Position numbers and translations under genes: made by a program. A stretch of DNA of 64,000 bases from sequence record MH791400.1; one strand, written 5' to 3'. Shown piece after piece: positions 53,924 to 55,420 of the stretch. How positions within the stretch are numbered: position 1 is the first letter of the stretch; each line of letters starts with the position of its first letter. Source of the stretch: Escherichia phage EcSzw-2. Below the pieces are notes generated by a model, which was not told the origin of the DNA, did no database searches, and was given only the letters and a program-made list of their open reading frames with translations.

Positions 53924-55195
53924 TTACCAGATGTAACGGTCAATCATTACTGCTTTGAGCATTACGCTGATTGGGTCAAACTTCTCACCACCAAGCAGAG
54001 CCTTTAAAGTGGCTGGAGAGAAACCTGATACCATCGCTACTCCGTTATCCTTTACGGATACTTCGCAGTGACCATTACGGTTTGCTAAGTACCAGAATAC
54101 CAGTTGTGGCATCTCATATCCAGCTTTTTCATACTTACTACGAATTACTTCGAAGTTTGTACGACCATTTGCCCCGTCAACCTGATTAAACTCCATATCA
54201 GAGAAGATAATAAGCTTACTTGGCATTGCTGCCTGAGTCAAGTTATTTCTTACACCAATTTCAAGAATACGGTCAAATGCTGCTTGTAGGTTTGTAGAAC
54301 CATATTCAACATGACTCATAATCTGACGATGACGATTCTGTAAAGTGCCACTCAGGGTGATAAAGTGAGGTCTGTCTGAGTAAATCATTAACTCATCTTT
54401 AAAACAACCTGTATTGCGTTCTGAGACGTATAACGCCAGAGACACACCAATATCAAGAGCGGTTACTGAACCAAATGTTTCCCAAGTCATAGAGCATGAT
54501 ACATCTGTCATACAAAGGATGTTTTCACCATCAGCCATCCAGTTTGGTAGTGCTTTCCACTGTTCATTAGCAACTTGTGCTTGACCACGCTGAACAGATT
54601 TAAGAACATCATAAGGGTATACAGCACCAGCATTAATCTTCGTCTCGCCCTTAGATAGAGCTTCAACGTAAGCTGCATAACGTTCACCATCTTTCTTACT
54701 GAACAGTTTTTGATAACGTGCAGCAGCTAGTGAAGGAATCTTGCTGTAGTCAATCTCACCAAAGTTATTTGTAGAGATTTTCTGTTCAACGGTATCAGAC
54801 AAAGCTGATAACAGTGTACGGTACTCTTTCTCACTCAGGTTTGCAAACTTACAGAAACGTTTTACAAACTGCTTGTGGCGTGGTTTTACTCGTGGTAACC
54901 ACTTAGCTGCTAAACATGCTGTATCAGGGTCTAACAAAGCTGCCTCTAAATGCTTGAAAGCATCAGTTTCATAACGAGTACCTACGAAGATTTTGAAGTC
55001 ATCGAAACGACCTAATTCAGAAATCTTATCCATGATACGAAGAACTTGGAAAGAATCTAGAATGTTATCTTCGATTGCTTGTAAGAGAACAGTTCGGAAA
55101 GCTTTACGCTCACCCATACCTTCTCGTACATCTCGCATATGCAGTAAAATACGAACTGCTACATCAACATCCTCACGCAAAGCTTTGTAGAACAA
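53924..55195 (-). CDS. von Willebrand factor A (vWA) domain protein, main reading frame (423 aa as annotated from TTG)
   Basis: MIDAS-type DxSxS motif (DVSCSM) and downstream LIIFSDMEF segment; the track ORF begins at a TTG and has no in-frame ATG after the preceding stop; N-terminal coding sequence appears displaced to a separate ORF (next feature). Confidence 0.6.
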   Translation of the reverse strand: MFYKALREDVDVAVRILLHMRDVREGMGERKAFRTVLLQAIEDNILDSFQVLRIMDKISELGRFDDFKIFVGTRYETDAFKHLEAALLDPDTACLAAKWLPRVKPRHKQFVKRFCKFANLSEKEYRTLLSALSDTVEQKISTNNFGEIDYSKIPSLAAARYQKLFSKKDGERYAAYVEALSKGETKINAGAVYPYDVLKSVQRGQAQVANEQWKALPNWMADGENILCMTDVSCSMTWETFGSVTALDIGVSLALYVSERNTGCFKDELMIYSDRPHFITLSGTLQNRHRQIMSHVEYGSTNLQAAFDRILEIGVRNNLTQAAMPSKLIIFSDMEFNQVDGANGRTNFEVIRSKYEKAGYEMPQLVFWYLANRNGHCEVSVKDNGVAMVSGFSPATLKALLGGEKFDPISVMLKAVMIDRYIW

Positions 55196-55214
55196 GTCTG
55201 GGAGAATCTCTACA

Positions 55215-55340
55215 TTACCACGGCTTGAGCCAGGCAGCTTTGTAGAAGTCTACCAAGGCAGACATTGATGATGTATGGTTAACAGCACCATTTTCAGTTC
55301 GCCCTGCATGGAGGTGCGAATGTTTAAATAAATCGCTCAT
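55215..55340 (-). CDS. 41-codon ORF encoding the probable true N-terminus of the vWA protein (MSDLFKHSHLHAGRTENGAVNHTSSMSALVDFYKAAWLKPW)
   Basis: ATG at 55338-55340 with purine-rich SD; ends at TAA 55215-55217; its C-terminal FYKA is re-encoded in the main ORF after a 12-nt direct repeat; frame differs by +1 from the main ORF. Confidence 0.45.
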   Translation of the reverse strand: MSDLFKHSHLHAGRTENGAVNHTSSMSALVDFYKAAWLKPW

Positions 55341-55420
55341 ATTTTACTCTCTTCTCTCATTTGTTGTTTGATGTGACAGACTTTAGAACATCTTCGTAGA
55401 GCCTGTCAACATCTTTTAAA

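Follow-up and report, generated by a model that had tools for sequence, protein, structure and literature searches.

A one-base frameshift in a single record of a conserved DUF2828/DUF7788 gene of Felix O1-like phages

The split gene and its family

The DNA analysed here is a 64,000-nt stretch of phage genome (the window), in which a gene of the DUF2828/DUF7788 family, read from the minus strand, appears as two separate open reading frames (ORFs). The minus strand of 53900-55450 gave a 100% match to Escherichia phage EcSzw_1 (MH791413.1) in a megablast search of the GenBank phages, and positions in that record equal window positions plus 22185. EcSzw_1 is a Felix O1-like phage of the genus Suspvirus within the Ounavirinae, and the GenBank title of its record starts with "UNVERIFIED". 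A sequence-only reading of the window had described the split as a 55-nt interruption flanked by a 12-nt direct repeat, and had proposed a ribosomal hop similar to that of T4 gene 60. Comparison with related phages revealed an ordinary one-base frameshift, unique to one draft-quality record, with no recoding.

Both ORFs were found as they had been described, the shorter one running over 41 codons from an ATG to a TAA and the longer one following in the +1 frame from a TTG (Table 1). The first 36 codons of the 41-codon ORF are native, codon 36 still encoding alanine, and its 35 N-terminal residues form the conserved N-terminus of the family. Its last five residues, WLKPW, and the TAA are an out-of-frame readout. 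The 423-codon ORF corresponds to native codons 49-471 and matches positions 51-476 of the PHROG 850 profile, with its frame open back to a TAG at 55252-55250. No Shine-Dalgarno sequence was found before its TTG. The statement that this frame has no in-frame ATG is correct for the interval between the upstream TAG and the TTG, but an ATG is present at codon 20 of the long ORF (55138-55136). The 12-mer TTCTACAAAGCT occurs exactly twice in the window, on the minus strand each time, and deletion of the 55 nt does yield a 1362-nt open frame of 453 codons reading ...VDFYKALREDVDV..., as had been claimed. Removal of one repeat unit restores the frame because 55 nt are 54 nt (18 codons) plus one.

The family to which the gene belongs is PHROG 850, named 'RNA-binding protein'; other annotations are Ro-like and vWFA, and in mycobacteriophages 'Ro-like RNA binding protein'. 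The protein of the window scored 144.5 bits against Pfam DUF7788 (cut-off 27.1) and 80.9 bits against DUF2828 (cut-off 29). Corrected by one base, the 471-aa protein spans PHROG 850 from end to end (positions 1-476) with 590.4 bits. A Ro60-like RNA-binding activity of the DUF2828/DUF7788 protein is putative and follows from the annotation name. For the intact homologue, neither a sequence match among solved structures nor a matching NCBIfam model was found, and a search of the literature library returned no paper on EcSzw_1 and none joining DUF2828 with phage.

Table 1. Features of the split gene and its surroundings, in window coordinates
Feature	Position	Strand	Description
Whole DUF2828/DUF7788 gene	53924..55340	-	1417 nt here versus 1416 nt (471 codons and stop) in relatives
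5' fragment ORF, 41 codons	55215..55340	-	ATG 55340-55338, TAA 55217-55215; annotated as EcSzw1_112
3' fragment ORF, 423 codons	53924..55195	-	first TTG 55195-55193, +1 frame; annotated as EcSzw1_111
First FYKA 12-mer	55236..55247	-	native codons 32-35, motif D-F-Y-K-A
Extra base, CC (GG on the plus strand) where relatives have a single C	55233..55234	-	one of the two bases is extra and shifts the frame in codon 36
Segment between the repeats	55193..55235	-	native codons 36-49 (AGSSRGNVEILPDL) plus the extra base; coding
Second FYKA 12-mer	55181..55192	-	native codons 50-53, motif L-F-Y-K-A
tRNA cluster, 16 genes	50153-53756	-	Leu-caa, Val, Thr, Gly, Ala, Lys-ctt, Leu-tag, Ser, Arg, Ile, Met, Lys-ttt, Asp, Asn, Met, Pro

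The extra base in codon 36

An intact ORF of 471 codons, with the same ATG and stop as the window gene, was found in seven GenBank relatives, namely phiSUSP1, EP1, Felix O1, KhF2, UAB_Phi87, Moogle and Sf13. In phiSUSP1, Felix O1 and Moogle it is annotated as one coding sequence (CDS) of 1416 nt, again with this ATG and stop, encoding 471 residues. The eighth GenBank relative, Salmonella phage S.Kent 1-2-1 (OR850874.1), is an unannotated raw assembly in which the site is read through in frame and the gene breaks at about codon 190. The site was read in frame in all eight of these relatives, as well as in all 22 readable IMG/VR contigs. Of these 22 contigs, each with the start on the locus, eighteen contain the 471-aa ORF in its entirety; in three it extends past the end of the locus, and in one (IMGVR_UViG_3300029816_000015) it ends at codon 360. 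The breaks in S.Kent 1-2-1 and in this contig, both at other places in the orthologue, are either more assembly errors or signs of a readily lost gene.

Alignment of the window with phiSUSP1, Felix O1 and Moogle contained one gap column, the window reading GCTGCCTGG and all three relatives reading GCTG-CTGG, by which GCT GCT GGY is changed into GCT GCC TGG at codon 36. The same insertion at 55233 was recovered by a genome-wide blastn comparison with EP1, the closest other relative (CCAGGCAG versus CCA-GCAG on the plus strand). The extra base is absent from every relative aligned base by base (phiSUSP1, Felix O1, Moogle and EP1). Its removal gives a 471-codon ORF, the product of which is identical to that of phiSUSP1 over residues 1-141. 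The two versions of the site can be written as GCTGCCTGG with the extra C and GCTGCTGG with a single C. A degenerate 28-nt pattern including the extra C was found in none of the IMG/VR contigs, while the same pattern without it was found in 23. The megablast search returned 251 matches, EcSzw_1 itself and 250 from Felixounavirus, Suspvirus and Mooglevirus, all covering 100% of the 1551-nt query. These 250 Felix O1-like matches showed 79-98% identity over lengths of 1549-1552 nt.

Of the 55 nt taken for an interruption, 54 are native and coding (codons 36-53, AGSSRGNVEILPDLFYKA) and one is the additional base. When the orthologues were checked for the absence of the 55 nt, as had been suggested, the stretch was present there. 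In the relatives it encodes AGSSR(G/S/N/T)NVE(I/S/V)LP(D/N/E)LFYKA and is under purifying selection. Between phiSUSP1 and Felix O1, native codons 35-52, in which the segment between the repeats lies, differ by six synonymous and two non-synonymous changes. In a tblastn search with the intact 120-residue N-terminus, 644 phage records were matched over at least 80% of its length, and the best 60 of the 644 were all single contiguous pieces whose aligned lengths differed from that of the query by a few residues at most. The matches listed included distant homologues from Aeromonas, Mycobacterium, Vibrio (KVP40), Listeria, Campylobacter and Bacillus phages. Since these homologues align at nearly equal length, the 18 residues are an ancestral part of the domain and no lineage-specific insert.

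Insertion of a mobile or foreign element of 55 nt (43 + 12) with a 12-nt target-site duplication, a form of the recent insertion put forward earlier, has nothing in its favour but the geometry, a segment with a direct repeat at either end. It is rejected, as the two copies, together with what separates them, are present and read in frame throughout Felixounavirus, Suspvirus and Mooglevirus, the distant homologues align without an 18-residue length difference, and EP1 combines an identical perfect repeat with an intact gene. The lesion measures 1 nt and not 55 nt. The "interruption" is not a feature.

The repeat itself belongs to a duplicated peptide motif. DFYKA (residues 31-35) and LFYKA (residues 49-53) are invariant across the subfamily as peptides, with variable codons. 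In relatives the first copy is written TTT TAC AAA GCT, TTC TAT AAA GCT or TTC TAC AAA GCC, and in Mooglevirus relatives the second is TTT TAC AAG GCT/GCA. Both 12-mers were identical in just one of the 22 IMG/VR contigs. Because EP1 has the perfect repeat together with an intact gene, and because the codons vary in relatives, the repeat predates the lesion and is unrelated to it. It did not arise as a target-site duplication, and it is no selected pair of take-off and landing sites. The window is moderately enriched in local direct repeats of 12 nt or more with copies no more than 100 nt apart, having six against 0.77 expected, and the FYKA repeat is among the two shortest. Three others of 18-19 nt, with a spacing of 27-69 nt, were noted at 24705-24791, 27198-27242 and 27421-27469, in or near the region aligning to the annotated tail-fibre genes of EP1 (EP1 42882-46610). 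These probably reflect peptide motifs that recur within fibre proteins.

Taken together, a single additional C on the minus strand throws the frame at codon 36 of a phage gene that is conserved and 471 codons long. The 5' part therefore runs for 41 codons into an out-of-frame TAA, and what remains of the gene stands in the +1 frame as an ORF of its own. The repeat of 12 nt encodes the duplicated motif (DFYKA ... LFYKA), for which the EcSzw_1 lineage by chance uses the same synonymous codons.

Programmed bypassing would require take-off in the first FYKA 12-mer and landing 55 nt downstream, and would give a 453-residue protein reading ...VDFYKALREDV.... The matched codons 55 nt apart, the stop inside the skipped stretch and the restoration of the frame all suit such a hop. 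The skipped stretch is, however, conserved coding sequence which is in frame in all relatives. The product would lose 18 conserved residues, and its fit to the PHROG 850 profile (555.4 bits) is 35 bits worse than that of the one-base correction; the product started at the TTG scored 540.7 bits. The last repeated codon, GCT, is followed by GCC TGG CTC AAG CCG TGG and TAA, so that the stop is the seventh codon. The 91-nt region 55260-55170 of the minus strand folds with -24.3 kcal/mol compared with a shuffle mean of -23.1 (z = -0.34), and 60 of 200 shuffles fold as well. The small hairpin that had been pointed out, GGC-UCAA-GCC, is absent from its minimum-free-energy fold. Moreover, the nucleotide identity of the 12-mers is not conserved, EP1 combines the identical repeat with an unbroken ORF, and the split arrangement was found in no other genome by megablast or by the IMG/VR pattern search. 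The chance that a programmed hop operates here is considered negligible.

A +1 ribosomal frameshift, programmed or compensatory, between the insertion and the TAA (for instance at CCG-TGG-TAA) would alter just five residues if it took place at the stop, the product reading ...FYKAAWLKPWNVEILPDL.... From 55249 onward the +1 frame stays open, and the zero frame runs into a stop codon, which can stimulate +1 shifts. On the other hand, no P-site codon is able to re-pair in the +1 frame (GCC to CCU, UGG to GGU). The prfB +1 frameshift site has an upstream Shine-Dalgarno-like stimulator, and no such element is present here. The arrangement is also absent from all relatives, and a recoding site has therefore not been selected for. 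A shift of this kind is very improbable. If the extra C were genuine, some functional protein might still arise by low-level hopping between the 12-mers or by +1 slippage before the TAA, without selection for either, an outcome that is barely credible. Taking every form of recoding together, only a slight probability can be given to it.

Sequence error or recent mutation

The two fallback explanations of the sequence-only reading, a fresh pseudogene and a sequencing or assembly error, are those to which the evidence of a lesion of one base in one record leads. A base-calling or consensus error is the most likely origin of the extra base, and is judged somewhat better than an even chance; the phage would then make the normal protein of 471 residues. 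Apart from the "UNVERIFIED" title of MH791413.1, 13 N bases are found in the first 22 kb of the record, at 568, 2211, 3118-3124, 3939, 4970, 6410 and 17318. The last of these lies inside the annotated CDS 15746-17572, a putative nicotinate phosphoribosyltransferase. One gene, EcSzw1_34, is annotated just as a misc_feature, and the locus tag EcSzw1_14 is missing. The title, the 13 Ns and the non-translatable gene together raise the prior for an error, and the lack of any other defect in the DUF2828 gene also counts towards one. Several of the Ns stand beside 9-10-nt deletions relative to EP1, in a repeated intergenic element (CTGGGGCTTATACTA...AACCCC...TGTAA) within positions 1-22185 of the record.

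Several observations weigh against an artefact. The window contains no N. Of the EP1 ORFs that reach 100 aa and have their ends mapped to the window, 67 are intact there. The DUF2828 gene is the sole clearly conserved ORF that is frameshifted, so the assembly is not generally ridden with indels. The insertion changes C to CC and lies outside the long homopolymers in which platform errors concentrate. In the assembled sequence, an artefact and a genuine, very recent mutation look alike. The other EP1 ORFs which seemed broken in the window are antisense, span a homing-endonuclease insertion, or have arbitrary far-upstream starts. Likewise, other isolated 1-nt indels relative to EP1 are intergenic, fall in 5' ends set by arbitrary upstream starts, or lie in antisense ORFs. 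A second frameshift candidate, at 47740, was discarded, as it is located upstream of a small gene annotated intact in the window and in phage mistaenkt. The window thus adds nothing to the signs of careless assembly, which come from the 22 kb upstream of it in the record.

Alternatively, the extra C would be a genuine frameshift, specific to this strain and very recent (arising for example during laboratory propagation), which inactivated or truncated a dispensable accessory gene. The phage would then make at most a 41-residue peptide, and perhaps an N-terminally truncated protein re-initiated at the TTG or at the codon-20 ATG. Uniqueness to one record fits a real mutation equally well, and no other conserved ORF is broken in the 64-kb window. 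Over the 436 codons after the shift, no further stop or indel was found in the window, and comparison with EP1 gave 18 synonymous and five non-synonymous differences (pN/pS 0.078, against 0.16-0.18 family-wide). As the gene is otherwise pristine, the lesion, if real, must be very young. The truncated copies in S.Kent 1-2-1 and in the IMG/VR contig fit a dispensable gene, but both come from raw or metagenomic assemblies. The draft state of the record speaks against a real mutation, as does the lack of a Shine-Dalgarno sequence before the TTG. The change is found in no independent sequence, and exact-protein look-ups of the corrected 471-aa product and of the 41-aa and 423-aa products returned no independent assembly on record. 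A genuine mutation is given a little under an even chance, and we infer that the extra base is an artefact. Were the mutation real, EcSzw_1 would be a natural knockout of the Ro-like DUF2828 protein beside the tRNA cluster and could be compared in phenotype with EP1 or phiSUSP1, which would be a modest resource and not a discovery.

Surroundings of the gene and comparison with known systems

The 16 tRNA genes listed in Table 1 follow immediately downstream of the frameshifted gene and share its strand, and the adjacency of a Ro-like-annotated gene to a tRNA array is an arrangement kept in the Ounavirinae. Beside tRNA-Pro, at about 53598-53673 on the minus strand, there is a sequence resembling tRNA-Glu(ttc). 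ARAGORN calls its phiSUSP1 homologue (3247-3324 of the phiSUSP1 locus) and not the window copy, which differs from phiSUSP1 by many stem substitutions, a 2-nt deletion in the region of the D-loop and a 1-nt deletion in the anticodon arm. EP1 has no indel relative to the window at this sequence. The window copy could be a diverged or decaying tRNA.

Other differences from EP1 concern annotated or putative homing endonucleases. A 174-aa ORF at 7815-8339 (minus strand) fills about 500 nt (7825-8322) that have no megablast match in EP1 and lie between aligned blocks. By its sequence motifs it appears to be a homing endonuclease of the HNH/AP2 type, and the adjoining 166-aa ORF (7318-7818) looks GIY-YIG-like. 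Downstream of the DNA polymerase gene, 17902-18789 of the window corresponds to EP1 35276-37059, in which an HNH endonuclease is annotated (35285-35797); the window lacks it at this place and has several small ORFs instead. The endonuclease near the DNA polymerase gene is another presence/absence difference between close relatives.

In T4 gene 60 the take-off codon GGA is situated directly before a UAG (PMC5462505), and the 50-nt non-coding insert is carried by a mobile element (bioRxiv 10.1101/2022.08.31.505936, Manning and Atkins). Bypassing of this type has a stop or 'hungry' codon directly 3' of the take-off codon. A take-off hairpin, flanking stem-loops, a Shine-Dalgarno-like element in the gap and a nascent-peptide signal, which anchors the peptidyl-tRNA and blocks termination, also take part, and the bypassing is conserved in dozens of homologous cassettes (PMC5462505; bioRxiv 10.1101/2022.08.31.505936). 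What the EcSzw_1 locus has in common with it, matched codons separated by about 50 nt and a stop within the stretch, is a superficial likeness. Whereas the gap of gene 60 is non-coding and absent from uninterrupted homologues, the EcSzw_1 stretch is conserved coding sequence, its stop lies seven codons off and in the shifted frame only, and its structure is not significant. The locus thus shares with gene 60 the matched codons, in a trivial manner, and has no non-coding gap, no adjacent stop, no structure and no conservation of the arrangement, so that the proposed hop finds no support in a split confined to one record. The case calls for caution, as a frame-restoring deletion between two short repeats can mimic a bypass cassette.

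The frameshifted genes of draft or "UNVERIFIED" phage records offer a second comparison. The EcSzw_1 gene resembles them in having a single-base indel in one record, an otherwise intact gene under purifying selection, and Ns together with a non-translatable gene in the record, and nothing distinguishes it from them.

The closest comparison is with the orthologues in the Ounavirinae, which include Felix O1 ORF86 (AAQ14774.1), phiSUSP1 ALH47022.1, Moogle gp85 and Sf13 gp19. The EcSzw_1 gene has in common with them its locus, between the DUF5681 gene and the tRNA cluster, its ATG and its stop, at a DNA identity of 79-98%. What sets it apart is the additional C in codon 36, by which the ORF is divided into parts of 41 and 423 codons. 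EcSzw1_111 and EcSzw1_112 should accordingly be annotated as one gene, orthologous to Felix O1 ORF86 and either mis-sequenced or a fresh null allele.

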